From: Candidatus Uhrbacteria bacterium CG10_big_fil_rev_8_21_14_0_10_48_11
Lineage (GTDB): Bacteria > Patescibacteriota > Patescibacteriia > GWA2-46-9
Direction: 5' to 3'
Assembly: GCA_002793855.1 (NCBI GenBank)
Contig: PFET01000012.1
Span: 6,222-70,221 of the forward strand
DNA length: 64,000 nucleotides
The translations under genes were made by a program, and so were the position numbers. Under the pieces are notes generated by a model. The model did not search any database, was not told where the DNA came from, and was given only the letters and a program-made list of their open reading frames with translations. Position 1 is the stretch's first letter; every line of letters begins with the position of its first letter. Positions 392 to 62,571 of this stretch are shown one piece after another.

Positions 392-1561
392 TCATAGCTC
401 GTGACGATTGGCCAGTTCGAGCAGTCGATTGTACTTGGCAACATGTCCTCCACTTCCGAAACCACCTAGCTCTACATACTCTGCGCCGGTAGCAAAAGCA
501 AAATCAATGAGAAAATCATCGAGCGTTTCTTTTGCGGAGGTACGCAAAATGCGAGGCACGTTCATACCCCTTGCTTTCACTGCATAGGCAAGCGCATCGC
601 CAATCGTTCGAAAATGCCACAAGTCAATGGCAGCCGCGCCAACCGCATGATTGGTGACTGCTTCGGTAAGTGCTCCGGCGTCTCTGTTGGCAACGTCGTT
701 GCGAAGAAAAAGCACTTGGTCTCCATACGTACCCTGCGCGCGCACCAGCGTTTGCTCGTCACGAAACGAATTCTCTACCATACCAATCGGGTAGCGCCGA
801 ATTAGCATATGGCAAAGATGAAGCATTCCTGCTTCGTCGTCTGACGTATCGGCCTCTTGCTCTTGCTGCAATGTCCGACCAAAATCTATGCCGATACGCA
901 CATCGTTACGGCGCAAACCGGCAGCATGGGTACTCTGTAATAATTGTGTAAGGGTATTATTAAGACCATCAACCGTTATCACTTCGTCGCTATTTTGTAG
1001 CGGTGCATTTGCTGACGCGGTAAACGCAGCGAGTGTCTTTCTGGCAAGATTCAGCAACGTTCTTATAGAGCGACGAGGACCACGAGAGGCTCGGGGATTT
1101 ATCGCCATGCGAACAGACCGAAACGCTCCAGTGTCATCTGTATGCACCAAAATAATAGGCACCGGCATTGCCCACCCCGGTCCAGAAAAAGGAGCAAACT
1201 CTCGCAAGTGTTCATACAGCTCACGGCCTGAAGCGCTAGCACCAACGCGAGCTACTGCCATTGAAAGTGCCCGAGCAAAAGGCGCCCAAGAATCTTGGTC
1301 GTCAAATTGCTCACACAACAAATTGATTTTTCGATCCACATCTGCCTGCTCAACCGCATCAAGACCGCGCAATGCTTTGAGTGTTTTTTCGTTTGCAAAG
1401 GTCATCGCCTCGGCAAATTGCTTGTCATTCATCTCGGCACAAGAAGCAACTGCCTCAGCTCGCTGTCCGGCAATAGTACGCACCCACGCTGTGATCGCTC
1501 GTCCTCCGTGGGCATCAAATACCTCACGAAAAGTTACGCTGTGTATCGCCGTTACTCTCAT
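392..1561 (-). CDS. Enolase-like paralog with substituted catalytic residues
   Basis: Collinear with the true enolase at 41562..42761: REVFDAHGGRAITAWV vs RKIFDSRGEPTIEVVA, MPVPIILVHTDD vs MPVP..NGGEHA, LRTSAKETLDD vs SHRSGETDD, VAKYNRLLEL vs INKYNELIRL. The GGEH Glu, the IIKP Lys, the SHRS His and the VKIG Lys are all replaced. Confidence 0.6.
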   Translation of the reverse strand: MRVTAIHSVTFREVFDAHGGRAITAWVRTIAGQRAEAVASCAEMNDKQFAEAMTFANEKTLKALRGLDAVEQADVDRKINLLCEQFDDQDSWAPFARALSMAVARVGASASGRELYEHLREFAPFSGPGWAMPVPIILVHTDDTGAFRSVRMAINPRASRGPRRSIRTLLNLARKTLAAFTASANAPLQNSDEVITVDGLNNTLTQLLQSTHAAGLRRNDVRIGIDFGRTLQQEQEADTSDDEAGMLHLCHMLIRRYPIGMVENSFRDEQTLVRAQGTYGDQVLFLRNDVANRDAGALTEAVTNHAVGAAAIDLWHFRTIGDALAYAVKARGMNVPRILRTSAKETLDDFLIDFAFATGAEYVELGGFGSGGHVAKYNRLLELANRHEL

Positions 1562-7887: not shown

Positions 7888-8577
7888 TTATTTGTCTTCG
7901 GTCTTCTTTGTGTCTGCGTCTGACTTCTCTTCTCCTTCTGCGTCTTCAGTTTTGCCTTTCTTTTCAACCTCAACCTCTGACACATCAGCAGCCACAACAG
8001 GAGTTTCCTCTTCTTCCTTACGGGGTGGGTGTACGGCAACCACAACCGTTTCAGGATCATTAGTAATAGCAACACCATTTGGGGTTGGGACATCTTTTAC
8101 GTGCAGTGCGTCGTCGATATTCGCAAGCACCCCTAAATCAACGGTAAGCTCGTGAACCAGGTCAGAAGGCAGACATTCAATTTCAACGTGATCAAGCGCT
8201 TTTACTAGCACACCACCTTGTTCTTTGACTGCTGGTGATTCACCAGAAAATGCCAAAGCAACCGTAGCGGTAAGCGTTTTCTTCATGTTAACCCTATAGA
8301 AATCAACGTGCTCAATGTCACCAGTCACCGGTTGTCGCTGCACATCATGGATGAGCACGACAAAAGGGGCAGCGTCACCAACACTTAAATCAACAAGGCT
8401 GCTTTCTCCTGCTGCGTTGAAAAGCTTTTGAAACTGACCAAGAGTAATCGCTACATCTATATTTTTTTTACCCTGCCCATAGACAACGCCAGGAATGATC
8501 CCCTCGCTTCGCAACCCTTTATTCTTCTTACCAAAAACCGTCCGCTGTTGGACGGCCAAACTAAACTTTTGTGCCAT
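7888..8577 (-). CDS. rplY: 50S ribosomal protein L25 / general stress protein Ctc, with an acidic C-terminal tail
   Basis: L25 beta-barrel N-terminus (MAQKFSLAVQQRTVFGKKNKGLR...). Start placed at the internal Met so it does not overlap the upstream gene. Confidence 0.85.
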   Translation of the reverse strand: MAQKFSLAVQQRTVFGKKNKGLRSEGIIPGVVYGQGKKNIDVAITLGQFQKLFNAAGESSLVDLSVGDAAPFVVLIHDVQRQPVTGDIEHVDFYRVNMKKTLTATVALAFSGESPAVKEQGGVLVKALDHVEIECLPSDLVHELTVDLGVLANIDDALHVKDVPTPNGVAITNDPETVVVAVHPPRKEEEETPVVAADVSEVEVEKKGKTEDAEGEEKSDADTKKTEDK

Positions 8578-8587
8578 CTCGATTAAG

Positions 8588-8917
8588 TTATATGATCGTA
8601 AATGAACCGTCGGCAATCGCCTCGTGAAGGGCAAGTACGTCATCAGCCGTTACTGGCTGGCGCTCTTTAGCAAGTACTTCGTCACTTGCTAAATCGGTCA
8701 ATATCCCAACTGAGTTCACGCCGAACATGTTTGCAAAGATGAGCGCCACTACAGCGCTCTTGCACTTTACGCAGGGCACGTGCAAAAGGTACGCATCTTC
8801 CTTTTCAGCAATCACCTTGGCGGCGCTGGGCTGATACCGTGTCTGGCACAGCGGGCAGCGAGCCATAAGGCGAAAGCCTTCTTGGAAAAACGACCGATCC
8901 AAATCATGCATTGCCAT
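8588..8917 (-). CDS. Hypothetical CxxC..CxxC zinc-ribbon protein (about 109 aa)
   Basis: CPLCQ...CVKCKS motifs. A TTGACA-17-TATAGT promoter lies inside the longer track ORF, so the start was moved to MAMHDLDR. Confidence 0.45.
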   Translation of the reverse strand: MAMHDLDRSFFQEGFRLMARCPLCQTRYQPSAAKVIAEKEDAYLLHVPCVKCKSAVVALIFANMFGVNSVGILTDLASDEVLAKERQPVTADDVLALHEAIADGSFTII

Positions 8918-8933
8918 AATAAAGTACGGGCGA

Positions 8934-8962
8934 ACTATATCAGGTGAGAGAACAAGTGTCAA
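8934..8962 (-). promoter_or_regulatory. Promoter TTGACA-17-TATAGT driving the zinc-ribbon gene and rplY
   Basis: Near-consensus hexamers on the minus strand, with the 5'UTR running from about 8927 to 8918. Confidence 0.5.
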
Positions 8963-8967
8963 GAAAA

Positions 8968-9040
8968 TGAAATCGGGGCGGCCAGCTTGTAAGCCGTCCG
9001 CCCCGACAGTCTTTCCACTCCGTCCTCCTGAGGGAGTGGC
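8968..9040 (-). terminator. Two stem-loops downstream of leuA (putative terminator)
   Basis: ggggcgg..ccgcccc and ccactcc..ggagtgg inverted repeats immediately 3' of the leuA stop. Confidence 0.4.
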
Positions 9041-9046
9041 CGCTCT

Positions 9047-10618
9047 TCAGGGCACAGGATCGTTTGATCGTCGGTTCTTGGTCGTGACCAATCGCACAAG
9101 CTCAAGACGGTTTATGGCGTCAACGTAGGCCAACGCCGACGCCATTACCACATCGGTGTGATTACCCCTTCCGCGGACAGCAATCTCACCCGTCCGGATC
9201 AGTACACTGACCTCGCCAAGTGCATCGGTGCCGCCAGTCAATCCTTTCGCCTGATAGCCCTCCAGCACCGAATAAACATAAGTACTTTTTTTGATGGCCT
9301 CGTAGCAGGCGTCAATGAGGCCATCGCCCGTCGCTGTGGCAGACTGCGATTTACCATCAATACTAATGGTCACCGCTACCTCAGGGTCTCCGTGGAGGCT
9401 TGCGACAACCCGTACATCCTCCAGCACGAACCGCTGACTGGCATCGGACTCATCACCAATCGCCACCACAATCAGATCTTCCGAAAAGATCTGGCCCTTT
9501 TTGTCAGCCAGCAACTTAAAGCGAGTAAATGCATCGCTAAAGTTGATAACCCTGGGATCAAATCCCAACTCGCGCAATGCCTTACTAAAGGCATGTCGGC
9601 CGGAATGCTTACCAAGCACCAGCGTGTTGCTGATCCGACCGACATCTTCAGGCCGCATGATCTCGTAGGTCCTGACGTTCTTGAGCACGCCATCCTGATG
9701 AATGCCCGCCTCGTGCGCGAACGCATTCGCGCCAACGATTGGTTTCGTCGGTGCAATCGTCATCCCGATCATTTTCGAAAGTGTCTGACTCGCCAGATAG
9801 ATCTGCTTCGCATTGACACGGGTGTTAATGACAAAGTGATCGTATCGAGTATTGAGCGCCATCACCACCTCTTCCAGCGCGGTATTGCCGGCTCGCTCAC
9901 CGATCCCATTGATGGTGCACTCAACCTGCCGCGCTCCGCCCTCGACCGCGGCCAAGGAATTGGCAACCGCCAGCCCCAGGTCGTTGTGACAGTGCGTGCT
10001 CCAGATGACCTGATCCGCGCTCTCCGTGCGCGCACGCAGGGTCTCGAACATCTGCCGAATTTTATCAGGTACTCCGTAGCCCGTGGTGTCGGGAACGTTG
10101 CAGACGCGGGCGCCAGCACGAATTACCTCGCCAAAGACCTGGCACAGGTAGTCGGTGTCGCTGCGCGACGCGTCCTCTGCCGAGAACTCAATGTAATCGA
10201 CGTACCTGCTGGCACGCTCGACCGCCCAAGCCGCGGCGTCAATGACCTCCTGCCGGCTCATCCCCAGCTTGTACCGCAAATGGATGTCCGAGGTCGCGAT
10301 AAAGACATGGATCCCTGGGGACTTGGCGCCATCCACTGCTCTCAACGCCGTCTCGATATCGGCCTCGCGAGTGCGAGCCAAGCTCAAGACTACGGGCCCG
10401 TCGACGGCACGAGCTACCGCCTTCACAGACTCTAAATCCCCCGGAGACGCAGCCGCAAAGCCAGCTTCTATGACGTCGACTCCGAGCGCCTCAAGCTGCC
10501 GCGCAACGGCGAGCTTCTCATCAACGTTCATCGTGCAGCCCGGCGACTGCTCTCCGTCACGTAGGGTCGTATCGAAGATCCGAACCCAGTCATTACTTCC
10601 GTCCCTGTATTTTCCCAT
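9047..10618 (-). CDS. leuA: 2-isopropylmalate synthase (LeuA family, with C-terminal regulatory domain); GC about 58-60%
   Basis: [30 protein letters not shown], and a C-terminal GDGLIDA LeuA_dimer domain; 523 aa. GC and GC3 are clearly higher than in the flanking genes. Confidence 0.85.
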
Positions 10619-10856
10619 TTTCTTTCCTCGCCTCTAGCCGCCCAAAGGACGGGTTGTTCAGTTGTAAAGAACAAACAAAAAAGCTCACCACCTGTGGTGG
10701 AGAGCTTTCGTACGAGTATCTTAAAATAAGCTACGCGCGAGACAACTCTCCACCCCTGGTCGGGGTGAGCAACGGAAGAAGAAGGGAGATTGTACTCTGG
10801 TAGAACTTCATAACTAAAAATAGACTAACGCCAGCCATAATACCTGTCAAGTACTG
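10619..10856 (-). promoter_or_regulatory. Leucine leader-peptide transcription attenuator: leaderless 26-aa ORF (10731..10811) MKFYQSTISLLLPLLTPTRGGELSRA, then an antiterminator/terminator pair
   Basis: Five Leu codons in six (CTT CTT CTT CCG TTG CTC). The 1:2 hairpin is CTCACCCC/GGGGTGGAG. The 2:3 antiterminator pairs GGTGGAGAG with CTCTCCACC. The 3:4 terminator GCTC-T-CCACC-aca-GGTGG-T-GAGC plus T6 sits at about 10675..10710, and the leader stop codon lies just past region 2. Confidence 0.65.
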
Positions 10857-11990
10857 TTAGACGGTGGCCACTTTCGAAACTTGGTAACCACGCGAACCTT
10901 CCGAGCGAGCGATGTTCTGCACAATACCCAGAAGCGCTAGGTGAACCAACAGCGAACTGCCACCCGCCGAAACCAAAGGGAAAGGAATACCAACAACCGG
11001 CACCAAACCCATCGACATACCAGCATTTACAAAAATCTCCACCGAAAACAATATAATGCTGCCAAGAATAAGAAAAGCAGCAAACCAATCCTGACAACGA
11101 TTGAGCAGTATAAACATTCGCACGTACATAATACCAAAAACACCCAACAGCACGACGATACCCGCAAAACCTAACTGTTCGGCAATGACGGCAAAAATAA
11201 AATCTGTTTCCGCTTCTGGTAAAAAACGAAGCTGACTCTGTGAACCTTCACCCAGTCCCCTCCCAACAAGCTGTCCGGCACCAACGGCAATGGTTGCTTG
11301 TCGCACATTATACGTAGCTGAGGTGACTGCTGTCGGCGAGAAAAAAGTTGCAATGCGTTCTTTTTGGTACGGCTTAAATAAGAAAAACCAAGCAACGGCA
11401 AAAAGGACAACAGCGGTAATCGTCGCCACAATAAAATATTTTCGCTTTACGCCAATAACGAGAACTAAACCTGCCCACAACGCCAGCAGAAGCGCTGCCG
11501 AGCCAAAGTCTGGCTGAAAAAAAACGAGTGCTGCCAAAAAAGCGGCAACAAAAAAACTCTGTGCTAAATTGCTAAGAAGATCCAGTTCTCGCGAGCGCCT
11601 CGCAAAATAAGAAGCAAGCACAATAACACCAACTAGCTTTGCAAGCTCCACCGGCTGAAAACGAAGTGAACCTACACCAATCCATCCGCGCGTACCGTTT
11701 ACCACCTGTCCAAACACCAAGGTTACGGCAAGTAGCGCAAGCATCGCCACGTACAACCAACGGCTCATCGACTGCCAGCTATGAAAGTCAATAAAACTTA
11801 ACCCTAGGTAAAGAACAAAACCGACCGCTGCAATAATGAGCTGTTTCTGAAACGTGTAGAGGTCTCCCCCGCCTCGACCAATGGCAACACTGTAAAGCGT
11901 AACGAGGCCAATGCCGGATACCAAAACAGTACCGGCGAATAAAGGCCAGTCGAAGCGTCCGACAAAATCTCTGATCCGCCGTGCGGTCAT
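10857..11990 (-). CDS. SEDS-family cell-wall polymerase (FtsW/RodA)
   Basis: 377 aa polytopic membrane protein with FtsW/RodA-like composition; an mrdA-mreDCB cluster lies elsewhere in the window. Confidence 0.75.
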   Translation of the reverse strand: MTARRIRDFVGRFDWPLFAGTVLVSGIGLVTLYSVAIGRGGGDLYTFQKQLIIAAVGFVLYLGLSFIDFHSWQSMSRWLYVAMLALLAVTLVFGQVVNGTRGWIGVGSLRFQPVELAKLVGVIVLASYFARRSRELDLLSNLAQSFFVAAFLAALVFFQPDFGSAALLLALWAGLVLVIGVKRKYFIVATITAVVLFAVAWFFLFKPYQKERIATFFSPTAVTSATYNVRQATIAVGAGQLVGRGLGEGSQSQLRFLPEAETDFIFAVIAEQLGFAGIVVLLGVFGIMYVRMFILLNRCQDWFAAFLILGSIILFSVEIFVNAGMSMGLVPVVGIPFPLVSAGGSSLLVHLALLGIVQNIARSEGSRGYQVSKVATV

Positions 11991-17941: not shown

Positions 17942-19051
17942 ATGGCACTTCCCTACCAACAAATTAAACGTCTTGTCGAAAACGGAGGTATTCAAACTAC
18001 TGCTGAAATTACTGAAGCGCAGCTGCAACCAGCATCAATAGACTGTACGCTTGGACAAAAAGTGTACCGTATTTCTTCCGGTTTTCTGCCAAAAGAAAAC
18101 GAGACGGTCGCCGAACTTTTACGAGAGCGTACCCTTTACGAATTTGAACTTGAGCCCGGCACCATTCTTGAAACAAATACCCCCTACATTATACCGCTGA
18201 GGGAATCGCTTAACCTGCCGGCAACCCTAATCGCTATAGCCAGCCCCAAGAGTTCAATTGGCCGCGTTGATGTGTTTGTACGCGTCATGACCGATCACAA
18301 CCCGCAGTACGACGCTATCCCTGCCGGTTATCAAGGACCCTTATATCTCGAAATTATCCCGCTGACGTTTGCCGTACGGATTTCGCCAGCGCTGGCGATG
18401 ACACAGCTAAGGTTTAGAGATGAGCAAGAATGTTTTCCAACTACTGACGAGATGCGCACTATTCACGGCAGCGATCCGCTTATCTTGACCACTTCGGGCG
18501 AAGCGCTTCCCACAAAGGGTCTACGCTTAAAAGAGAACATCCTCTCCTTCACGGTTGATTTAACCGGTTCTGAAATTGTCGGCTATCGCGCGCGACACTA
18601 CGTGAACAAACTGCTGGATCTCACAAAAATAAACGCGCATGATCCCGCGCTTTTTTGGCACCCAATACCACGGCAAGCAAATGGTGAACTCATTCTTGAG
18701 CCAAACTCCTTTTACATCATTGCCACCAAAGAACGGGTACGTATACCCTCGCAGATGGCGGCAGAAATTATGCCCTACGACCCCTCAACGGGAGAACTGC
18801 GCTCCCACTATGCGGGGTTTTTCGACCCAGGCTTTGGCTGCGGCAATGACGAGAATATGCATGGTAACATTGTAGTACTTGAAGTCCGTGCCCACAGTGC
18901 CCCTTTCCGGCTGACAGATGGACAGGTAATATGTAAGATGATGTTTGAAAGACTAACGGAGGTACCCGAAAAAACCTACGGCGCAAACGTTGGCTCCACC
19001 TACACCGATCCTACTATTCGCTTAAGTAAATACTTTTCTTCGCATGTCTAA
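17942..19051 (+). CDS. Tandem dCTP-deaminase/dUTPase-fold protein (DCD family, about 370 aa)
   Basis: Two dUTPase-like halves: SIDCTLG resembles the Dcd SIDLRLG motif, and GFFDPGFGCGND resembles the Dcd GxxDPGF motif. Confidence 0.55.
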   Translation: MALPYQQIKRLVENGGIQTTAEITEAQLQPASIDCTLGQKVYRISSGFLPKENETVAELLRERTLYEFELEPGTILETNTPYIIPLRESLNLPATLIAIASPKSSIGRVDVFVRVMTDHNPQYDAIPAGYQGPLYLEIIPLTFAVRISPALAMTQLRFRDEQECFPTTDEMRTIHGSDPLILTTSGEALPTKGLRLKENILSFTVDLTGSEIVGYRARHYVNKLLDLTKINAHDPALFWHPIPRQANGELILEPNSFYIIATKERVRIPSQMAAEIMPYDPSTGELRSHYAGFFDPGFGCGNDENMHGNIVVLEVRAHSAPFRLTDGQVICKMMFERLTEVPEKTYGANVGSTYTDPTIRLSKYFSSHV

Positions 19052-20573
19052 TGCCGTAAAACCAGACGTCTTTGCTATTACCGGTTTACCGCCAGAGGTA
19101 CTGGCGGTCGCCATGGCAAAGTACAGCCGCTCAAAAAACCCAATTCGAGAAACGATTGATGAATTGACCGAGGAAAAATCCGCTGAGTTCCATGAAAAAT
19201 GGGTGCTTGGTTATGGTGACGCCTCTGTTGCCGATATGGCTATCATTGCGATTGCCTGCGAAAATGTTTCGATTATTGCCTCTAAAGCTATCGAAGACAC
19301 TCGGCTGGCTTCGTTTCAAGAAAAATCTACCCGCTACGTCGATTTCGACACTTCTAAATACTTTCGCCCACGTTCGGTTATGGAAAATAATGCCGAGCAA
19401 TATGAAAAAACCATCAATACCCTTTTTGAAAGCTATACCGGACTACTGGATAAAACCATTGCCTACCTGCGCCGGCGCTTGTCGCGTCCAGAAAAGTTAA
19501 GCAATAAGCTCTATGAAGCAAAGCTTAAGGCACGCTCGCTTGATGCGGTGCGCTACTTTTTGCCAGTTGCAACACTAACGAACTTTGGCATGATTATGAG
19601 CGCTCGCTCACTTCGCCACCTCATTGCAAAGTTAAAAGACAACCCCTACACGGAAGTTCGCGAACTCGCTGAAGCAATTCAAAATGCCGCACTTGAGCCG
19701 GCCTATAATCCTCAGGCAAAAAAAATTGAGGAACTTCTCGCCAGCCTTCGTGCTATGGGAGGCGAAGCCAACGAGTTAGCTGATCAGGTTGCCGCAACCG
19801 CAACACTGCAAATAAAAGGCGCGCCAACGTTGATTAAACACACTGAACCTTCACCCTACCAAAAACACACAAACGAGTATCTCTCTACATTTGAGGCAGA
19901 TCTACTTAAAAATGCACCAATTGCCGACGCGCCGCGTGTCGATTATCTTGAAAATCATTCGTACGAAGATGAACTGGTGACAACGTTACTCTATGGGGTT
20001 TCAATATTCTCCTACCGACAAATCTTGACTGCCGTTCAAGCGCTGGCGCCAGAAAAAAAACAGGTACTACTTCAAACGGTTGCTAGTTTCCGTGGTGACC
20101 ACGACCAACCGAGACGTGAATACGAGGCTGGAGGTCAGTTCGTCTTTGACGTTCTTATGGATTACGGCGCGTTCCGTGATCTTCAGCGTCACCGTATGTG
20201 CACGCAAATTAACCAACCACTGACGACCGTACATGGCTACGAGGTACCGTTCGAGCTACGGGATGCCGGCCTCGAACAAGAATTTAGAGCAATCATTGAT
20301 ACGACACTCGCCACTCATACAAAACTGAAAAAAGTGGTCGGCGCTGACGCTGACTATCTGATTCCGCTTGCCTGCAAAAAGAGAACACTCTTTAAGATGA
20401 ATCTGCGCGAGCTTTACCATATGGTAGAGTTACGATCTAAACCAGGTGGACATATGTCTTACCGTACGATTGTCACCGATATGTACGCCGCAGTTAAAGG
20501 CCGCCATCCGCTACTCGTAGAATCATTGCGCATTACGCCACTCGATTATGACAAAGATTTCTTCAAGCGTTAA
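19044..20573 (+). CDS. thyX: Flavin-dependent thymidylate synthase ThyX, tandem-domain form (509 aa)
   Basis: Second half carries RHRM and the ThyX C-terminal helices. First half is a ThyX-like domain (AMAKYSRSK, RYFLPVATLTNFGMIMSARSLRHL) with a degenerate RHR motif. Confidence 0.8.
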   Translation: MSNAVKPDVFAITGLPPEVLAVAMAKYSRSKNPIRETIDELTEEKSAEFHEKWVLGYGDASVADMAIIAIACENVSIIASKAIEDTRLASFQEKSTRYVDFDTSKYFRPRSVMENNAEQYEKTINTLFESYTGLLDKTIAYLRRRLSRPEKLSNKLYEAKLKARSLDAVRYFLPVATLTNFGMIMSARSLRHLIAKLKDNPYTEVRELAEAIQNAALEPAYNPQAKKIEELLASLRAMGGEANELADQVAATATLQIKGAPTLIKHTEPSPYQKHTNEYLSTFEADLLKNAPIADAPRVDYLENHSYEDELVTTLLYGVSIFSYRQILTAVQALAPEKKQVLLQTVASFRGDHDQPRREYEAGGQFVFDVLMDYGAFRDLQRHRMCTQINQPLTTVHGYEVPFELRDAGLEQEFRAIIDTTLATHTKLKKVVGADADYLIPLACKKRTLFKMNLRELYHMVELRSKPGGHMSYRTIVTDMYAAVKGRHPLLVESLRITPLDYDKDFFKR

Positions 20574-24864: not shown

Positions 24865-25422
24865 TCATTCAATCCGCTCCCCTGCAAGGTGCGCAAATTC
24901 GTAGGCATCTACCATGGCTAGCCAGCTTGCCTCAGTGACGCTTCTCGCTGTCGCCACGGTTCGGAAGTCCCAGCCATGGAACGTCCAGTCCACGACAACC
25001 TTGACCCGTGCCGCAGAGCCGCCACTACCAACCTTAAAAACGTGGTAATCACCGAGCTCCAAGCCCAAAGCTTTGACTTCAGCAACTTTGTTCATTGCGT
25101 TATCAAGCGCATTGATGGGCCCGTCTCCACGACCGGCCACATGGTCTTCTTGCCCTGTTTCCAGACGAAGCATGATTGTTGCTTCGGCAGGCTCTGCAGT
25201 TCCATCATCACCGCTTCGATGTAATTCACATACTCGGTACCACTCGACAAAAACAAAGGAGCAATTTGATCCATTCTCTCGAAACTGCGCCATTGCAATC
25301 GAAACAGCCTCCTCGCGTACGTATTCGCCATTCATTAAAAAAACCGCGATACGTACACCCCTTTCTCCGCTAAGATCCAAAAGACCCAACTCGCTGAGTT
25401 TCGCGAAATCAATTTTTTTCAT
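24865..25422 (-). CDS. Stand-alone LeuA regulatory (LeuA_dimer-like) domain protein, 185 aa
   Basis: GRGDGPINALDNAMNKV and VGSGGSAARVKVVVD...VTEASWLAMVDAYEF align with the C-terminal R-domain of the leuA product in this window ([15 protein letters not shown]...[11 protein letters not shown]...[13 protein letters not shown]). Strong GGGGAGGAAGGG Shine-Dalgarno sequence. Confidence 0.55.
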   Translation of the reverse strand: MKKIDFAKLSELGLLDLSGERGVRIAVFLMNGEYVREEAVSIAMAQFRENGSNCSFVFVEWYRVCELHRSGDDGTAEPAEATIMLRLETGQEDHVAGRGDGPINALDNAMNKVAEVKALGLELGDYHVFKVGSGGSAARVKVVVDWTFHGWDFRTVATARSVTEASWLAMVDAYEFAHLAGERIE

Positions 25423-28996: not shown

Positions 28997-30124
28997 CTAC
29001 TGAAAGCGCAGCTCTATTTTGCTCGGCAGCCTTGGTAAATGCTGCTGCCAGTAAGGAATAAGCTGCACCTCAACACTATCTATGCCTTCAAAGTGCGACA
29101 AAAATTGCTTGACCTCTGTCGGTGTCGCGCCTACAAAGTTGATTGGTGAGAAAACTGAGCTTGTGGTATCAAGCGCTGCGCCTACGGTAGCGATACCGCT
29201 AATGAGCGCTGTCCGCGCAATGGGATCATAGTCAGCGATAGTGTACTGCCAGTTATTCCCAACCATGCTCACTTGTCCACCGGCAGCATTTTTTACCACA
29301 TCGTTTAGCGCCTCTTTGCTAAAGGCGACTGCAATAACCCTTACGCGTAGTGTAGCCGTCAACGCCGCAGCACTATCCCCTGTCTTGCTCGAATAGTCTT
29401 CACTTAACGCGGTCGTAATAAAATCTGCATCGGTAAGATCACCACTAGCAACATGCGCACCGTCCGTACGCTTAACCGCATCAAGGGCACGACGCAACAA
29501 CGTCTGTTTAGCATTCTCAATGTCTTGATCGGTAACCTCGCGCACTACCGCACCACCGCGCACCATAGCAACCGAAGAGGTGGCGTAGATGTCCTTTTGT
29601 AAATTTGGCGACAAGCCTGGTATCGTAAAGTGGCTCGGCCCGACGAGGTAGCTATCTTCTGAACCGTCCGCTTCGACAACCGCACTAACCTGCCCACCGG
29701 CGGGAACCCGGACAGCTTGTGTCAAACGGAACAGGATATTGTCGGGTGTCAGCAATCGCGTTGTTTCAACCAATGGCTGCGCACGGTCACTAGTATTAAT
29801 AATAGTTACGATACCTCCAGCTTTCGCGGTTGGCTCAGGATTTTGCTGTAATAAAAACGTGTCTGATTCGTCCTTTGTGGTTTCTAAAAAGGTCGCAGAA
29901 ATGGCACCGTCTGGCAGCGTCTTTCCTATTGTTTCTTCTGCTAGCGTTGCCTTGTACGAAACATCCCGTTCAACCGGATGACGATGCACAACAATAACCG
30001 CTCGTGAAAGCGTTGTGTACGCAATAAACCCAAGCAAAATAACTGTTAACACCACGAAAGAAATCGCAATGTTTCTTAGTAGTTTCGCTTTCGTTGGTAG
30101 TAGTTCTAAATCCCCCATAGACAT
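28997..30124 (-). CDS. Hypothetical membrane-anchored protein with extracytoplasmic domain (375 aa)
   Basis: N-terminal TM helix (IAISFVVLTVILLGFIAYTTL); no motif recognised. Confidence 0.45.
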   Translation of the reverse strand: MSMGDLELLPTKAKLLRNIAISFVVLTVILLGFIAYTTLSRAVIVVHRHPVERDVSYKATLAEETIGKTLPDGAISATFLETTKDESDTFLLQQNPEPTAKAGGIVTIINTSDRAQPLVETTRLLTPDNILFRLTQAVRVPAGGQVSAVVEADGSEDSYLVGPSHFTIPGLSPNLQKDIYATSSVAMVRGGAVVREVTDQDIENAKQTLLRRALDAVKRTDGAHVASGDLTDADFITTALSEDYSSKTGDSAAALTATLRVRVIAVAFSKEALNDVVKNAAGGQVSMVGNNWQYTIADYDPIARTALISGIATVGAALDTTSSVFSPINFVGATPTEVKQFLSHFEGIDSVEVQLIPYWQQHLPRLPSKIELRFQ

Positions 30125-41561: not shown

Positions 41562-42761
41562 CTATTCGTCGTAGAGACGAATGAGCTCGTTGTACTTGTT
41601 GATTCTCTCGTTTCTCGGAGCCCCAATTTTAACCGCATCCGCGCTGCCGGCCTTTGCTAGCTCGATAATAAAGGGATCATCCGTCTCTCCTGAACGATGA
41701 GAGACAATAGTGGTGAGTTTATGCTGGCGAGCGATTTCTAGCGCCCTACACGACTCACTTACCGTTCCTACCTGATTCGGCTTAATGATAACCCCGCTAA
41801 TGCAAGCACGCTCGGCAAACCCCTCAATACGCTTTGGGTTTGTTACCGTAAGATCGTCACCAACAACCGAAAGATTAGGCAATGCCTCCAAAAGAGCGGC
41901 AAACCCCTCAGCGTCATCTTCAGCAAAAGGATCCTCGATACTAATAAGCCTAGGGATTTCGGTAGTAAATTTCTTGTACACTTCAACCATTTCCCCCGCA
42001 TTTATTGTTTTGCCACCAAATCGGTAACTCCCGTCATGATAAAAACTAGAAGCTGCGGCATCAAGCGCCAAGGATAAGCGATCCGAAAGCGACGACTCTT
42101 CTATGAGCGAGCTAAGTATTTTTAATGGTTCTTCATTGTTTTTAAAATCTACACAGTAGCCAGCTTCGTCACCAACCGGCAGTGCTTCCAGCTTACGGGA
42201 AGTGCGGAGCTGTTCCCCCAAAGTTCGGTAGAGAGCCACCAGTTCTTGTGTTAGTTCGGCGTAGGATATTTTTGGAGCAGCCACGAGCATATACTCTTGA
42301 ATAGCAAGATTGTTAGCAGCATGCTCGCCACCATTAATGACATTACTGTAAATGCGCGGACGAACGGCACCACTAACGTGGGCAAAAAACTCTTCGTGCA
42401 GTACCTCTGAAAGTTGCCTTGACTGTTCGGCGGCTAACGCGCGAGAGAGGGCAACAGAAATCGCAAGCGTAATGTTGCCGCCAAGTATAGCCTTGGTATC
42501 TGTTGTATCAATCCCTAGCAGTAGCTCGTCAACTTCATGAACGGAGCCGTACTCTCTGCCGAGCATTGCCTTTCGAAGCGCCTCAATTGACTGTTCGGCT
42601 TCATGGTACGAAAACACTTTTGCCTCTGCACTACCACGACTTTTACCTGAGGGCACCGCAGCACGATGAGAAACACGAGCGCCGTCGAGTGCTACAACTT
42701 CGATGGTCGGCTCACCACGAGAGTCAAAAATTTTTCTGACGCGTAGATCGTCTAACTTCAT
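41562..42761 (-). CDS. eno: Enolase
   Basis: SHRSGETDD, IIKPNQVGT and NGGEHA motifs; 399 aa. Confidence 0.95.
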   Translation of the reverse strand: MKLDDLRVRKIFDSRGEPTIEVVALDGARVSHRAAVPSGKSRGSAEAKVFSYHEAEQSIEALRKAMLGREYGSVHEVDELLLGIDTTDTKAILGGNITLAISVALSRALAAEQSRQLSEVLHEEFFAHVSGAVRPRIYSNVINGGEHAANNLAIQEYMLVAAPKISYAELTQELVALYRTLGEQLRTSRKLEALPVGDEAGYCVDFKNNEEPLKILSSLIEESSLSDRLSLALDAAASSFYHDGSYRFGGKTINAGEMVEVYKKFTTEIPRLISIEDPFAEDDAEGFAALLEALPNLSVVGDDLTVTNPKRIEGFAERACISGVIIKPNQVGTVSESCRALEIARQHKLTTIVSHRSGETDDPFIIELAKAGSADAVKIGAPRNERINKYNELIRLYDE

Positions 42762-49263: not shown

Positions 49264-49293
49264 GTCGAAGTGGTTTTCGCCAAAAAACTAGCT

Positions 49294-49575
49294 TTAAAGG
49301 ACAGCGTCCTTCGCGGCTTTAGCGACGCGGAACTTGACTACCGTCTTTGCCGGAATCTGAATTTCCTCGCCGGTTGCCGGGTTGCGCCCCATACGGGCGT
49401 TCCGGTGAACCTTTACCAGCTTCCCGATGCCAGGCACCAGGAACTCTCCGTTGACCTTAACTTCGCGGTACGCGAGGTCAGTGTAGGCCTCTACGAACGC
49501 AACGACCTCTTTCTTGCTCATACCGGTCTTCTCGGCGAGCGCCTGGAGGACTTGCGATTTTGTCATCTTCGCCAT
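49294..49575 (-). CDS. hup: DNA-binding protein HU
   Basis: 93 aa; the RNPxTG arm motif (GRNPATGEEIQIPA). Confidence 0.92.
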   Translation of the reverse strand: MAKMTKSQVLQALAEKTGMSKKEVVAFVEAYTDLAYREVKVNGEFLVPGIGKLVKVHRNARMGRNPATGEEIQIPAKTVVKFRVAKAAKDAVL

Positions 49576-49710
49576 AGGCGATAATGGTTAGTTAGTAAAT
49601 GAACAAAGGTATCGGTTGGGCGTAATCTGCTTGGGTGCAAAATTACCTTTCCCCAACTTGAAAACAGTATACAGTAAAGCAAAATAGCCCGCAAATACTA
49701 GCAACCCCAC

Positions 49711-52368: not shown

Positions 52369-54009
52369 CTACACAATATCTTCCCGTTTTTCACGGAAGA
52401 AACCAAGTACGTCCTCAGATACTAACAAAAAAGCTTTGATAGGAGCTTCGAGAAAATAATCAAAAAAGTAGAGAAACACATTAAAGCGGGAGGAAGTAAG
52501 GGCAATCCACCGCCCCACTTTCAAAATAGGTAATGACAATAAATCAACAAGCGACGTAAGAAAAGTGTCTCGCCGTCGTTCCACAAACAAATCACGGACA
52601 GGCTGACGAATGCGAAGGGCAAAGAAAGAAACGATACTAAGAAAGAAAAGAAAAAAGAGAACACCCACCAAAGTGAAGCCGAAGGTGCTGAGTGTTGCGG
52701 TAATAAAACCAAACGTCAAAGCAAAAGCGATACTATAGATAAAGGTCAGTGCTCCCGTCGATACCGCAGAGGCGCGCCGAGGCGCCCGTAATTCGGGGAA
52801 AATTCTTCCGGCACCCCCGTATTTTATTGTCTCTGAAAGTCGGAGAACGACTTCGGTATTCTTTTCCTGAGGGAATCGCATCGTCAACGTCAATAGAAAC
52901 ATAAGAATTGGAGGAAATGACAAGTTCGTAATGAGTGGTGTCGTTGCTATTGCCCCATAAAGTAATGCCTCGATAGGTGCTTCCAGAAGAAGTGCTACCA
53001 AAATTTTTGTAAGAAAAATATATATTATGGCGCGCAAAGCGCTAGTATAAAGTCGTCCACGGGCCGCGCGATAATAACGCGTACAAATCTCCCTAACGGT
53101 TGTTTCAAATCGATTAGTATCACTAAGTAATAATTCGGCGCTAGAGAGATCATCCTTGATGACATCGTAGAGTGCATGGAAAATAAGTGATCGACGCCGA
53201 AGAGCACGATAAAACCGATCACTCGCTGGGTGAGTAATGGCTCGCTCAATTTCTTTGTGATGATGAAGCAATTCGGGAACGATACGCTCTGCGTCTGCAG
53301 GGGAAAATTGATGCCAGTTTTTCATGCGACGCCGTAGCAAAAGAAATCTAATTTTTGGCAAATCAAGTGAAAAGAGCGCCCGATAGGCAGCAACATATTC
53401 TAACGTTGCTCTGTCTTCGTCGCTGAGTCGCCACGCTGCCAAAGGACGGTCTCGGTCAAGTGAAGCACGGACAAGATTTACCAATGCTTCCTCTTCTGGT
53501 GTCGGCACCAAAAAAGCATCGAGTTCTGCTGCTGCCACGCCGGTCAACCACTGTAAAATTTCAGCACAATTATTGATCGGCGTTTGATTGATGACAGCAA
53601 ACAACGATGCGTAGCGGTCAAGAATAATCTGCACCCTAGGAATTACTGATTCTGAAACTGCATCGTTCTTTAAGTACTGAGCATGCACGAATTCAACCAA
53701 CAACGATCTTGCTGACCCATTAATTTCGCCGGAAGAAAACCGACGACGTAATATGCGCTGAAAAGCGTGCCGACGAAGAAGGTGCTCCTCGTGGTAGTCA
53801 ACACTGTAACGAAGTCGTTCGTAAAAATGTGCCGCGTGAGACACTGCGCTCGAAACATGTATAACCGGCTCACCTTCCGTTACTTCGTAAGGTGCCTTTC
53901 CTTGCCGCAAGGTTTGTATAAAATCCTGAACCGGCCGCGCTAACTGGCGGTCAGAAAATGGCTCTTCGTTTGGCGTCTCGCCCTTCTTGGTAAACGCTGA
54001 GATAGGCAT
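52369..54009 (-). CDS. Hypothetical protein: about 320-aa cytoplasmic helical domain plus 5-6 C-terminal TM helices (546 aa)
   Basis: Hydrophobic segments in the C-terminal third; no catalytic motif recognised. Confidence 0.45.
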   Translation of the reverse strand: MPISAFTKKGETPNEEPFSDRQLARPVQDFIQTLRQGKAPYEVTEGEPVIHVSSAVSHAAHFYERLRYSVDYHEEHLLRRHAFQRILRRRFSSGEINGSARSLLVEFVHAQYLKNDAVSESVIPRVQIILDRYASLFAVINQTPINNCAEILQWLTGVAAAELDAFLVPTPEEEALVNLVRASLDRDRPLAAWRLSDEDRATLEYVAAYRALFSLDLPKIRFLLLRRRMKNWHQFSPADAERIVPELLHHHKEIERAITHPASDRFYRALRRRSLIFHALYDVIKDDLSSAELLLSDTNRFETTVREICTRYYRAARGRLYTSALRAIIYIFLTKILVALLLEAPIEALLYGAIATTPLITNLSFPPILMFLLTLTMRFPQEKNTEVVLRLSETIKYGGAGRIFPELRAPRRASAVSTGALTFIYSIAFALTFGFITATLSTFGFTLVGVLFFLFFLSIVSFFALRIRQPVRDLFVERRRDTFLTSLVDLLSLPILKVGRWIALTSSRFNVFLYFFDYFLEAPIKAFLLVSEDVLGFFREKREDIV

Positions 54010-59646: not shown

Positions 59647-62571
59647 TTAGAAGGTCACGCTGCCTGTTGCTAGTGGTACTCCGGCAACCTCGGCTGCAAT
59701 TCGAGAATCACGACCAATGGTTTCGACACTTAAGAGCTGGAGCGCAATGGTATCCCCAGTAACACCGTCCGTTGTATTAACGTAAACCCGCAAGCGCATG
59801 ACTTGACCAGGCGCAAGGGTCGGTCCGGTTACTCGATTACCACCGCTACCGCTTACGGGTGAACTTATGGTTGAGCCACGTGTGTACCCAGTTGTCGCAT
59901 CCACTAACCGCATACTCGCATAGCCACGGGTGACCGATAGGCCACTCGAACCTGGTGCATCAATAAAGGTAAGTCCGCTTAACTGAATATCCTCGGCGCC
60001 AGAGGCAGTAACGGTAAAGCCGGCAACTGGCACATTTCTTCCGGTGGTTGCCGTGCCGCCAGTGAAAGTTGTGTCGGGTGAAACCGTAAGCACACTTCGC
60101 TCTACTACCACCGCTGTTGTTTGTTCATTTCCATAAGTCACACTGATGAGCGCGCCCGATGTTTTGCCGTGCGCGGTAATGCCGCCAATCGTAAACTGTG
60201 CCACCGAACCGTCGCTGGCAAACGAGGAATCAACCAGCAGGTCGTACCCGTACTCGCGATTAGCGGGAATAGTCACGCTCAATGGAAAACGATAGGATCC
60301 ACCACTTGGTGAGACAATGGTTACATTGCCAAGTTTCAAATTAGAAAAGCCGTGGCTGTAAATAACCGGAGACGAACCGATAGGCTCCAGCACCACTTCG
60401 TCTATTTTGATATCCTCTCCCGGGCTTGCTTTCAAGAGCAATCGTCCAATTTTCGCTCTCACTTTACCGGCCGGTATTGAGGCGGCAGTGAACCGCGGGT
60501 CGTTTCTGACAAAGAGAGAAATTTCCTGTGTTGCACGAACAGGTCCAGCAACAACCGTTGCAAAAGTAACCGTGTTTGTCTCTCCGCTTACGGTAAAATG
60601 AAAATTAGAAAAATTAACTTGATACGAGTCGCTTGCCTGGACGGCATCGCTTAGGCTCCCTACTAATTCATACGTATAGGTTTTACCGTTTACTAATATG
60701 GGCGCTGTCGATAGATAGGTGGTAACTGAATGGTCGGTCACCGTATCGGCATCAACGGTGGCTATGCGATCTCCTCCTTTTAGTCGCAAAGAAAGCGAGC
60801 CAAGAAATTTTGTGTGTGGTGCAGTTGTTGCAACTTCGATAGTCAATCGATCCCAGCGCAGGTTTTGTCCACTTGGTCGAATATCGATACTAGCAAGTAC
60901 GGTGTCGCTTGCCCCCTTTGTTAATGGACCACTCGGACTATTGGTAGACAGCGCCACAACAACACTTCCGCCAATAATATGCAGGGCATTAACGCCCGTC
61001 AGTAAGGTACTACCGACGGGAAAACTGCCGCCAATACCCGCAGACACAGCAGAAACTGCATAACCGAAACTGTTTCCCACGGCATAGATATCATAGTCGT
61101 TTTCAATAATAAACTGTGCCTGACGGTCGTTACCCGATATAATATCGCCGCGTAAAATAAATTCCTGACTCTGTCCGGCACTTATACTGTACGGCGAAGT
61201 AAACCGAAGAGCGACCGTGTTACCACTCGTTGAACCAGCTACAGCGACTGACCTACTGCTGCTATCAACCAGTTTCAGATGTGCAAAATCATCAATTGAC
61301 CCATTGCCAACCATCGTCAGCACAAGCCGTTCAACGCTTACGGACTCTCGTCCAGTCTGCACGGTAAACTTAAAACGGTTGAGGTCTTGGTTGATTTCGC
61401 CTACACGAATATCGCGTGCACCACTGGAGAGCTGCACAACGGAAACCTGCAGCGAACCTATAAGTGCCGTGCTATTCAACACGGTGTAGGTCCTACTGAG
61501 AAGCGGAAAGGAACCCGTTATGGTTCCTCCGGTCGACTCTATATCAGCCGCGTTCTCTAATGAAAATGTAACCGTACTTTGACTACCGGTTGCTAACGTT
61601 GTGGCAAAGTTTGCCGTTAGGGTCAGTGACTGTGTTTGGTTGGCGGCAACCGAAACTGGTTTTAGAAAAGTAAAATGCACAGCTCCGTTCACAAATTGCT
61701 GCGGTCGGGTGAGCGCAAAGCCGCTCTCGTCAAACACGAGTAAGCTGGTAACGTCCCGATCTTGCAGGAAACCACGTCTGGTAATAGTGATAGCCTCCAC
61801 ACTAGCCGTACTGTCTCCTCCGTGGAGCACAATCTTTGCTACCTCATTTCTGGTTGTTCCAGAGGGTACCGCTACGGGAAGGCTAGTCACCGCGAGGCTG
61901 ACAGATAACGCAGCGCTTGGTGGTGCTGTCGGTGGTTCGGGTGGTGCAGGCAAGGTGTCTAAACTTAACGGATCGATTTGCTGATAGCCGTCAAGCAGTG
62001 GCTGGGGAACAGTAAGAACGTCAGACCAACGAAAGCCCGCTGCAGTAAAAAGATCGGGGGACGGAATAAGCGCTCTCGTCTGTGCGGTGTAATCCAGATA
62101 ATAAATGTTTGGATCGTCTGCTATTTTCACCAGCCGACCATTTCGTAATGTTCGACTATCGTCTCCACTTATATGCACTATATCCTTCCACTGCTCTCCA
62201 GAATCAAGGAAGCTTTTTTCTGTCGGAAACCAGACCTTCTGTCCACTTAACTGGTCTAAAAGATAAACGCGAGGACCCAACGATGACTTAATAAGTCGTA
62301 AAGGAGTAAACGCTTGCAACGTCGAACTACTGACGTCTTTAATATGAATGAACCGATAGGCATAAGACTGCAATACATCGAAATTTGGAATATAATGCCG
62401 AATCCCGTCAATTACCGCATAAATCTTTTTTGTACTTTGGTCGCGCAAAAGCTGAACGTCTGCATCAAAATAAGAAGTTGCGTGCGCCTGTGATGCACCA
62501 AACAAACACACTAGAGTAAAGAGTGCCGAGAAAAGTATTTTGCTCTGTTTTTTAGGCGTCATTCGCTTCAA
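59647..62571 (-). CDS. Large secreted Thr/Ser/Val-rich beta-repeat protein (974 aa) with N-terminal YxxxDGxRxxIP repeats
   Basis: Signal peptide MKRMTPKKQSKILFSALFTLVCLFGASQAHA. The repeats KIYAVIDGIRHYIPNFDVL and NIYYLDYTAQTRALIPSPDLF are also present in the disrupted gene at 25682..26910. Confidence 0.7.
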   Translation of the reverse strand: MKRMTPKKQSKILFSALFTLVCLFGASQAHATSYFDADVQLLRDQSTKKIYAVIDGIRHYIPNFDVLQSYAYRFIHIKDVSSSTLQAFTPLRLIKSSLGPRVYLLDQLSGQKVWFPTEKSFLDSGEQWKDIVHISGDDSRTLRNGRLVKIADDPNIYYLDYTAQTRALIPSPDLFTAAGFRWSDVLTVPQPLLDGYQQIDPLSLDTLPAPPEPPTAPPSAALSVSLAVTSLPVAVPSGTTRNEVAKIVLHGGDSTASVEAITITRRGFLQDRDVTSLLVFDESGFALTRPQQFVNGAVHFTFLKPVSVAANQTQSLTLTANFATTLATGSQSTVTFSLENAADIESTGGTITGSFPLLSRTYTVLNSTALIGSLQVSVVQLSSGARDIRVGEINQDLNRFKFTVQTGRESVSVERLVLTMVGNGSIDDFAHLKLVDSSSRSVAVAGSTSGNTVALRFTSPYSISAGQSQEFILRGDIISGNDRQAQFIIENDYDIYAVGNSFGYAVSAVSAGIGGSFPVGSTLLTGVNALHIIGGSVVVALSTNSPSGPLTKGASDTVLASIDIRPSGQNLRWDRLTIEVATTAPHTKFLGSLSLRLKGGDRIATVDADTVTDHSVTTYLSTAPILVNGKTYTYELVGSLSDAVQASDSYQVNFSNFHFTVSGETNTVTFATVVAGPVRATQEISLFVRNDPRFTAASIPAGKVRAKIGRLLLKASPGEDIKIDEVVLEPIGSSPVIYSHGFSNLKLGNVTIVSPSGGSYRFPLSVTIPANREYGYDLLVDSSFASDGSVAQFTIGGITAHGKTSGALISVTYGNEQTTAVVVERSVLTVSPDTTFTGGTATTGRNVPVAGFTVTASGAEDIQLSGLTFIDAPGSSGLSVTRGYASMRLVDATTGYTRGSTISSPVSGSGGNRVTGPTLAPGQVMRLRVYVNTTDGVTGDTIALQLLSVETIGRDSRIAAEVAGVPLATGSVTF

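Follow-up and report, generated by a model that had tools for sequence, protein, structure and literature searches.

The stretch of DNA analyzed here (64,000 nucleotides [nt]; referred to below as the window) belongs to Candidatus Uhrbacteria, a lineage of the candidate phyla radiation (CPR), and carries a solitary gene, leuA, whose exact protein product is recorded in that organism as 2-isopropylmalate synthase. The gene is preceded by a leucine-rich leader and lies between rodA and a small open reading frame (ORF), which is followed by the gene for L25/Ctc (Table 1). The first-pass annotation, made from the letters alone, had placed leuA between rplY and ftsW/rodA; the L25/Ctc and RodA/FtsW assignments were confirmed, and a 109-amino-acid (aa) ORF that it did not mention separates leuA from the L25 gene. 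This ORF contains two CxxC pairs, has no family match, and is shortened to 46 or 92 aa by gene callers. It is 78 to 93% identical over its full length in two other CPR lineages (L104 and L162; see below) and is also present in relatives lacking leuA (L017 and L018), and its GC content at third codon positions (GC3) is somewhat above that of its neighbors in all three lineages (0.54, 0.47, and 0.47). Pfam and NCBIfam scans of all 52 window ORFs of at least 100 aa detected no leuB, leuC, leuD, or ilv gene, as had been stated for these 64 kb; the other ORFs include translation, replication, glycolysis, nucleotide, and cell wall genes.

Table 1. Features of the leuA locus in the window (positions are those of the window)
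Feature	Position	Strand	Basis or remark
L25/Ctc	7888-8577	minus	Pfam/NCBIfam
109-aa CxxC...CxxC ORF, native downstream flank	8588-8917	minus	sequence, synteny
Promoter of small ORF, TTGACA-17-TATAGT	8934-8962	minus	11/12 positions match
leuA intrinsic terminator, CGGGGCGGACGG...GGCCGCCCCG with T-rich tail	8964-9005	minus	sequence, inverted repeat I2
leuA, 2-isopropylmalate synthase, 523 aa	9047-10618	minus	ORF, Pfam, NCBIfam
LeuA domains: catalytic TIM barrel, aa ~10-290; subdomain II, aa 291-375; regulatory LeuA_dimer, aa 376-505			
Attenuator RNA	10675-10770	minus	folding, terminator-like site, inverted repeat I1
Attenuator regions	1, 10770-10762; 2, 10756-10746; 3, 10705-10696; 4 with U6 tract, 10692-10677		
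Leader peptide ORF, 26 codons, MKFYQSTISLLLPLLTPTRGGELSRA and stop	10731-10811	minus	sequence
Promoter-like site, TTGACA, 17-nt spacer, TAGTCT	10850-10845 (TTGACA); 10827-10822 (TAGTCT)	minus	read from sequence; putative function
rodA/ftsW family, native upstream flank	10857-11990	minus	Pfam/NCBIfam; GC3 0.447; relatives all CPR

Three Pfam domains (PF00682 HMGL-like, residues 12 to 278; PF22617 HCS_D2, 294 to 374; and PF08502 LeuA_dimer, 376 to 505) span the whole LeuA protein, regulatory domain included. The protein also passes two NCBIfam equivalog models for isopropylmalate synthase (IPMS), i.e., NF002086 (689 bits; cutoff, 532) and TIGR00973 (612 bits; cutoff, 599), which bears out the initial description of a full-length enzyme with its regulatory domain. 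Scores were below the cutoffs for the CimA citramalate synthase models (TIGR00977, 199 versus 450; NF042433, 170 versus 950), the NifV model (TIGR02660, 291 versus 463), and the fungal/archaeal homocitrate synthase (HCS) model (TIGR02146, 261 versus 414). The best solved relative is the Neisseria meningitidis IPMS (3RMJ; 418 bits over its catalytic and accessory domains), to which the protein is identical in the aligned LRDGEQ, HCHNDLG (HxH), IH(V/T)F, EFS.ED, and N.PDT segments. Its pocket positions H104, S146, N174, and P176 equal the N. meningitidis residues. Four pocket residues identified in Escherichia coli LeuA are reported to be shared by canonical IPMS enzymes and to differ in citramalate and methylthioalkylmalate synthases (PMC7826400). 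The four window positions presumably correspond to these residues (H97, S139, N167, and P169 in E. coli). Among 133 near-invariant catalytic columns (at least 95% conserved in the 119 closest homologs), 131 are kept. Judged by its sequence, the window enzyme is an IPMS and not a CimA or HCS enzyme; the earlier suggestion of a citramalate or homocitrate synthase is not supported, given these model scores and the IPMS-like pocket. With other bacterial LeuA proteins (3RMJ and those described by NF002086 and TIGR00973) it shares the three-domain architecture, the metal and substrate motifs, and the GDGxxDA loop, whereas it differs from them in being encoded by a solitary gene of a CPR genome, not alongside ilv/leu genes, and in having a regulatory domain that has diverged far faster than the catalytic domain.

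Elsewhere in the window (24865-25422, minus strand), a stand-alone 185-aa protein consists essentially of the LeuA_dimer (PF08502) allosteric domain and has a native GC3 of 0.48. Its best partial NCBIfam match is the C terminus of citramalate synthase, and an exhaustive search returned 382 relatives, most of them short and stand-alone and one of the same length and 48% identical. This protein could be a sensor of a small molecule, perhaps a branched-chain amino acid. We considered whether it arose by duplication of the regulatory domain of leuA and rejected this origin, since the two are only 27% identical and the composition of the 185-aa protein is native; the proteins are regarded as separate.

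The composition of leuA sets it apart from its surroundings. Its GC content is 57.3% (0.62, 0.44, and 0.66 at the three codon positions; GC3, 66.4%), compared with 48.3% for the remainder of the window. The contrast of about 60% with about 48% given in the first-pass annotation therefore stands with respect to the background and the clear excess, the value for leuA being slightly too high. The GC3 of the 51 other window ORFs of at least 100 aa is 0.456 ± 0.042, which places leuA at z = 5.0, and the highest GC3 among the 28 window ORFs of at least 300 aa with which it was compared is 0.493. The N-terminal half of the gene (~62% GC) is richer than the C-terminal half (~54%), and the raised-GC segment runs from the leuA start through the terminator, including a 3' spacer of 54% GC. 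The leader region (238 nt) has a GC content of 46.6%, versus 46.7% for all non-ORF sequence of the window, so that its native-like composition, also pointed out at first reading, is upheld. The only other ORF with a raised GC3 (49270-49584, plus strand; 104 aa; GC3, 0.60; GC, 0.556) lies between metG and a methyltransferase gene and has no family match; it may be spurious or another small foreign piece.

The promoter-like site of the leader begins 6 nt past the rodA stop codon and has a perfect -35 hexamer. A consensus promoter scanner did not list this site (10822-10850) because its -10 hexamer matches at 3 of 6 positions; the layout TTGACA-N17-TA(G/A)(T/C)(C/T)T is conserved in L162 and L104. 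The putative leader peptide contains a run of control codons (CTT CTT CTT CCG TTG CTC at 10784-10767), with 5 Leu among codons 10 to 15. Region 1 of the attenuator starts at the last Leu codon of this run, and the leader stop codon lies 12 nt past region 2. The predicted hairpins are 1:2 (-12.8 kcal/mol), the 2:3 antiterminator (-27.0 kcal/mol; GGUGGAGAG paired with CUCUCCACC), and the 3:4 terminator with its U6 tract (-17.0 kcal/mol), and folding of the leader region is stronger than that of shuffled sequences (z = -3.6). This predicted arrangement is textbook attenuation geometry. As in leu operon attenuation of the E. coli/Salmonella leuL type, a short ORF with consecutive Leu codons is combined with 1:2, 2:3, and 3:4 hairpins that exclude one another, and the intrinsic terminator is placed ahead of the structural gene; unlike in the leuL systems, the window leader would govern a solitary leuA, and its host is a CPR bacterium. 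A ribosome stalled at the leader Leu codons when charged tRNA-Leu is scarce would free region 2, allowing the antiterminator to form and transcription to read through into leuA, whereas a ribosome reaching the leader stop codon would mask region 2 and let the terminator form. We infer that attenuation operates in vivo and that leuA is expressed when charged tRNA-Leu is low.

Three CPR lineages, designated here W (the window locus), L104 (also represented by L100 and L159), and L162, carry the same cassette (i.e., promoter, Leu leader peptide attenuator, leuA, and terminator) at the same junction. A LeuA scan of metagenome contigs retrieved L104 and L100, in which the gene order is hyp-rodA-leader-leuA-small ORF-L25-prmC-prfA-L31, and a RodA search retrieved L162, with a RodA 80% identical to that of W and the same arrangement. 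L159 is syntenic with W for more than 21 kb, and L162 for about 17 kb. In both additional lineages, leuA is again GC rich relative to the native genes (GC3 of 0.60 versus 0.27 to 0.34 in L104 and 0.71 versus ~0.45 in L162). The leader peptides of L162 (MYRLQSLTLLPLSLLTPRKGEELSCA and stop) and L104 (MHKLSNNLLLLNLLLLTKDGELTCA and stop) are homologous to that of W and contain seven Leu and eight Leu in a row of nine codons, respectively. The 1:2, 2:3, and 3:4 hairpins are also predicted in L104 (-12.1, -22.2, and -15.1 kcal/mol) and L162 (-8.8, -28.6, and -21.4 kcal/mol). Across W, L104, and L162, the 21-bp antiterminator has 96.8% paired cells, compared with 34 to 48% in slid controls, with one compensatory pair and four one-sided changes; since only three sequences are available, a shuffle control of this conservation is uninformative. 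Housekeeping proteins differ by 20 to 45% among these lineages, and the persistence of an intact enzyme and switch across this divergence argues for function. It likewise argues that the lone leuA is useful to all three lineages and not accidental. L162, the closest relative of the window organism, has an extra 254-aa ORF (9200-9964, plus strand; low GC; GC3, 0.33; no Pfam hit) between rodA and the leader, which points to the rodA-leuA junction as a repeated site of gene gain.

The chromosomal surroundings of the cassette are those of a CPR genome. RodA has relatives in CPR only, and a tblastn screen of 80 CPR rodA loci detected no LeuA. In nine syntenic CPR loci (L008 to L013 and L016 to L018), the small ORF and/or L25 lies within 70 to 500 bp of rodA without leuA, and these loci thus represent the empty insertion site. 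ARAGORN found no tRNA in the window that would mark an integration site, and no direct repeats bracket 8964-10856. The sole integrase is a 155-aa phage integrase domain fragment (L089, 16633-17100) near the end of the same 105-kb contig; it lies about 9.6 kb beyond the window start and about 19 kb from leuA, too far away for a connection with the leuA insertion. Three assemblies of the window locus (ENA and Logan) agree exactly at the junctions, and the rodA-leader-leuA-small ORF-L25 order recurs in the two other lineages, which come from JGI and Logan assemblies of other samples.

Searches for relatives of LeuA lead outside the CPR. In 5.8 billion clustered proteins, the next-best match is only 73% identical, and the closest matches are all non-CPR, the named ones being metagenome-assembled genomes of Candidatus Binatia, 'Limnocylindrales', Deltaproteobacteria, and Hyphomicrobiaceae. 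Binatia-like LeuA proteins (P0002 and P0004 to P0008) are 72 to 73% identical to the window protein overall and 80 to 82% identical in the catalytic domain, a value that rises to 89 to 91% for the L104/L162 allele. In a neighbor-joining tree of the 120 best hits, the window LeuA is nested among these non-CPR sequences as sister to an 18-member Binatia-like clade and has the longest terminal branch (0.244; median, 0.07). The Binatia-like loci (L004, L005, L007, and L155 to L158) have GC contents of 63 to 69% and leuA GC3 values of 0.78 to 0.92, and all those fetched are ordered ilvN-ilvC-psd-pssA-[240-320 nt]-leuA-truA. Their leaders are of the same design, with a Leu-run peptide (...LLLLRCPSGA.AVV and stop) followed by a GC-rich terminator upstream of leuA; they differ from the CPR leaders in peptide sequence, the latter being of the ...LLT..GEL..A type, and in that pathway genes are neighbors there and none are found at the CPR locus. 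P0019, the best match to the window in the regulatory domain, was tried as a further CPR copy and rejected on account of its psd-pssA-leuA donor context. Donor contigs of the P0005 type share two JGI metagenomes (3300013125 and 3300013137) with the L104/L159 CPR contigs. Horizontal acquisition of leuA is strongly supported by its non-CPR, GC-rich relatives, by the empty CPR sites, and by the 5-sigma deviation in composition. As part of the joint best explanation, the ultimate source of the coding part would be GC-rich, Binatia-like bacteria.

Patescibacteria are reported to consistently lack amino acid biosynthesis genes and to gain few of them by transfer (PMC12455944). As in the horizontal transfers surveyed in that study, a non-CPR metabolic gene is located here amid core genes and a plausible donor co-occurs; the survey contains few transfers of amino acid biosynthesis genes, whereas the present case is a regulated cassette that occurs in three lineages and whose coding part has been repeatedly replaced. 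The literature search on isopropylmalate or leucine biosynthesis in Uhrbacteria, Patescibacteria, or CPR returned nothing specific.

Evidence for replacement of the coding part came from comparing the gene tree with the host tree. The flanking proteins group W with L162 as sister hosts: identities for W-L162 and L162-L104, respectively, are 80% and 65% for RodA, 80% and 56% for L25, 79% and 60% for PrfA, and 93% and 76% for the small ORF. For LeuA this order is reversed (62% and 73%; regulatory domain, 27% and 52%). In neighbor-joining trees of LeuA, whether built from the whole protein or from the regulatory domain alone, L162 and L104 are sisters in 100 of 100 bootstrap replicates, and W never groups with L162 (0/100). 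Over residues 1 to 390, L162 and L104 join the donors P0004 and P0005 to the exclusion of W in 90 of 100 replicates. Synonymous similarity, measured at fourfold-degenerate sites against a within-codon-family permutation null, gave a corresponding picture. The leuA genes of L162 and L104 are more similar than expected (0.41 observed versus 0.31 expected; z = 3.7 to 3.9), whereas the pooled flanking genes of this pair are saturated (z = 1.1). Synonymous similarity to P0004 also persists in the catalytic part of the L162 and L104 alleles (z = 3.4 to 3.5); the W allele has no significant synonymous similarity to any sampled donor. Within the cassette itself, the identities of the leader (0.70, 0.57, and 0.55) agree with the host tree, and those of the 3' spacer (0.75 for L162-L104 versus ~0.50 for the other pairs) agree with the gene tree.

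These sequence comparisons are most economically read as a single cassette insertion, after which the coding region and the 3' spacer were jointly exchanged at least twice. An ancestor shared by at least three CPR lineages would have received the cassette, at the junction of rodA with the small-ORF/L25 operon; the later exchanges may have run either from donor to CPR or from CPR to CPR. An old insertion with later replacement of the coding part would explain why a leader of native GC precedes a gene of foreign GC and why GC3 is high in all three lineages. Simple amelioration of one old transfer was considered and rejected: W and L104 are synonymously saturated yet both are GC rich, and L162 favored replacement. 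On balance, we consider it probable that the locus is a horizontally acquired, self-contained leuA expression cassette that was inserted once and had its coding part and 3' spacer replaced at least twice, with Binatia-like bacteria as the ultimate source. The original proposal of a horizontally acquired single enzyme is thereby retained as regards foreign origin (non-CPR LeuA relatives, empty sites, and z = 5.0). A simple, recent, one-off transfer of a bare gene does not describe this history, given the regulated cassette in three CPR lineages and the coding part exchanged more than once.

Several observations weigh against this history or against a role of its product in leucine supply. The trees are neighbor-joining trees only, and the host tree derives from eight flanking proteins. 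Rfam yielded no gathering-threshold match in the window and no leader, T-box, or riboswitch at an E value of ≤10 in 8900-11000; the window leader is thus unmatched at that level even by Leu_leader (RF00512). Since the assemblies of the window locus (n = 3) are identical in DNA, they give no population-level sign of purifying selection. Neither the window nor the ~6 kb of contig read past its start contains leuB, leuC, leuD, ilvE, or ilvD, so a role in leucine synthesis depends on genes beyond the stretches read. The 17 to 21 kb around the L159 and L162 leuA copies likewise contain no leuB or leuCD, and none of these stretches includes a source of 2-ketoisovalerate. The regulatory domain is also unusually diverged. 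That of W is about 52% identical to the donors, against about 65% expected (donor pairs of comparable catalytic divergence keep 62 to 67% regulatory identity), 7 of its 39 near-invariant columns are changed, compared with 2 of 133 in the catalytic part, and the regulatory domains of W and L162 are only 27% identical. When regulatory and catalytic conservation were compared, P0062 (the L104 allele) was the strongest outlier of 120 (z = -3.5), with W at z = -1.9. W and L104 retain the GDG(L/I)(I/V)DA loop, which we take to be a site of feedback resistance mutations (e.g., G462D in E. coli); L162 has GDGIVNV, with the D-A pair changed. Feedback control of the enzyme may have been retuned rather than lost.

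The tree discordance could instead reflect a single acquisition with strictly vertical descent and an artifact of unequal rates (e.g., the long branch of the W copy), and the insertion point and homologous leader common to the three lineages, together with the longest terminal branch in a neighbor-joining tree being that of W, fit this explanation. We nevertheless regard it as unlikely. The sister relationship of L162 and L104 receives full bootstrap support even from the regulatory domain alone, and that of W and L162 receives none; the synonymous similarity of the L162 and L104 leuA genes is not matched by the saturated flanking genes; and the 3' spacer also groups L162 with L104. In addition, the flanking proteins of W and L104 are equidistant from outgroups, which indicates that no lineage-wide rate shift has occurred. 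An assembly or binning chimera, in which a GC-rich fragment was misjoined into a CPR contig, could produce the abrupt GC step at a single gene, but its probability is practically negligible in view of the identical junctions in three assemblies of the window locus, the same arrangement in two other lineages, and a leader upstream of leuA that is CPR specific and of host composition.

The remaining alternatives concern the use of the gene. A recent, one-off, neutral transfer of an unused stray gene, the most straightforward reading of a lone gene of foreign composition, would agree with the strongly foreign composition, with the absence of pathway partners in 64 kb, and with the reported lack of amino acid biosynthesis genes in CPR (PMC12455944). 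It is highly improbable, however, for a cassette that three lineages, with differences of 20 to 45% between their housekeeping proteins, carry at one and the same junction, with an intact ORF, 131 of 133 invariant catalytic positions kept, attenuator stems kept with a compensatory change, and a fully ameliorated leader, which indicates that the locus is old. Recruitment of the enzyme in vivo as a citramalate, homocitrate, or other 2-oxoacid:acetyl-coenzyme A (acetyl-CoA) condensing enzyme for some other purpose is conceivable, as substrate switches occur readily in the LeuA/CimA/HCS family, the regulatory domain is strongly diverged, and no leuBCD genes are nearby. We judge this quite improbable: the CimA, NifV, and HCS models all remained below their cutoffs while both IPMS equivalogs passed, the catalytic domain is 80 to 82% identical to that of LeuA proteins encoded in ilv/leu contexts, the four pocket residues are those of the N. 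meningitidis enzyme, and control by Leu codons fits an enzyme of the leucine pathway.

Three further sets of window genes, unrelated to leuA, deserve mention. There are two enolase family genes. One (392-1561, minus strand), beside pgk/gap, has weak enolase domain matches (34 and 30 bits); the other (41562-42761, minus strand), beside genes for a D-2-hydroxyacid dehydrogenase and pyruvate phosphate dikinase, encodes a normal enolase. In L159, the gene after pgk encodes a normal-looking 421-aa enolase. ThyX (19044-20573, plus strand) is 509 aa long, about twice the usual length, with the Thy1 domain in two matched stretches, which suggests an internal duplication or fusion of flavin-dependent thymidylate synthase; it has the same length in L159. 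Finally, three large ORFs (59647-62571, 974 aa; 52369-54009, 546 aa; and 28997-30124, 375 aa; all on the minus strand) have no Pfam match and lie among cell wall and translation genes; CPR genomes typically encode lineage-specific proteins of this kind.

With respect to function, the window enzyme would condense 3-methyl-2-oxobutanoate and acetyl-CoA, and its sequence leads us to infer that 2-isopropylmalate is the product. This product would serve leucine supply, via leuBCD located elsewhere in the genome or through a partner organism, and the conserved Leu attenuator argues that it is tied to leucine supply. CPR bacteria (Patescibacteria) are thought to obtain amino acids from hosts, few of which have been identified. 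The gene may belong to a patchwork pathway built by transfers, or it may be an orphan step whose product is exchanged with a partner; the Leu switch fits both. In a more specific and rather unlikely version of the latter, Binatia-like bacteria would be the hosts of the Uhrbacteria-like clade, and a leucine-starved symbiont would make 2-isopropylmalate for the host pathway, bypassing the host's only feedback-controlled step. If so, the symbiont would obtain more leucine, and the fast-evolving regulatory domain would represent retuned feedback sensitivity.

The enzyme, the type of regulator, and the process of acquisition are all known. What is unusual is that the host is a CPR bacterium, that three lineages maintain a solitary regulated gene, and that its coding part has been replaced repeatedly from a single donor lineage. 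Selection appears to act on leucine supply in these CPR cells, and Binatia-like bacteria are candidates for their partners or hosts. The locus also provides a natural example of regulatory and coding regions that differ in age, the former being resident and the latter replaceable, and this difference can mislead composition-based dating of gene transfers.

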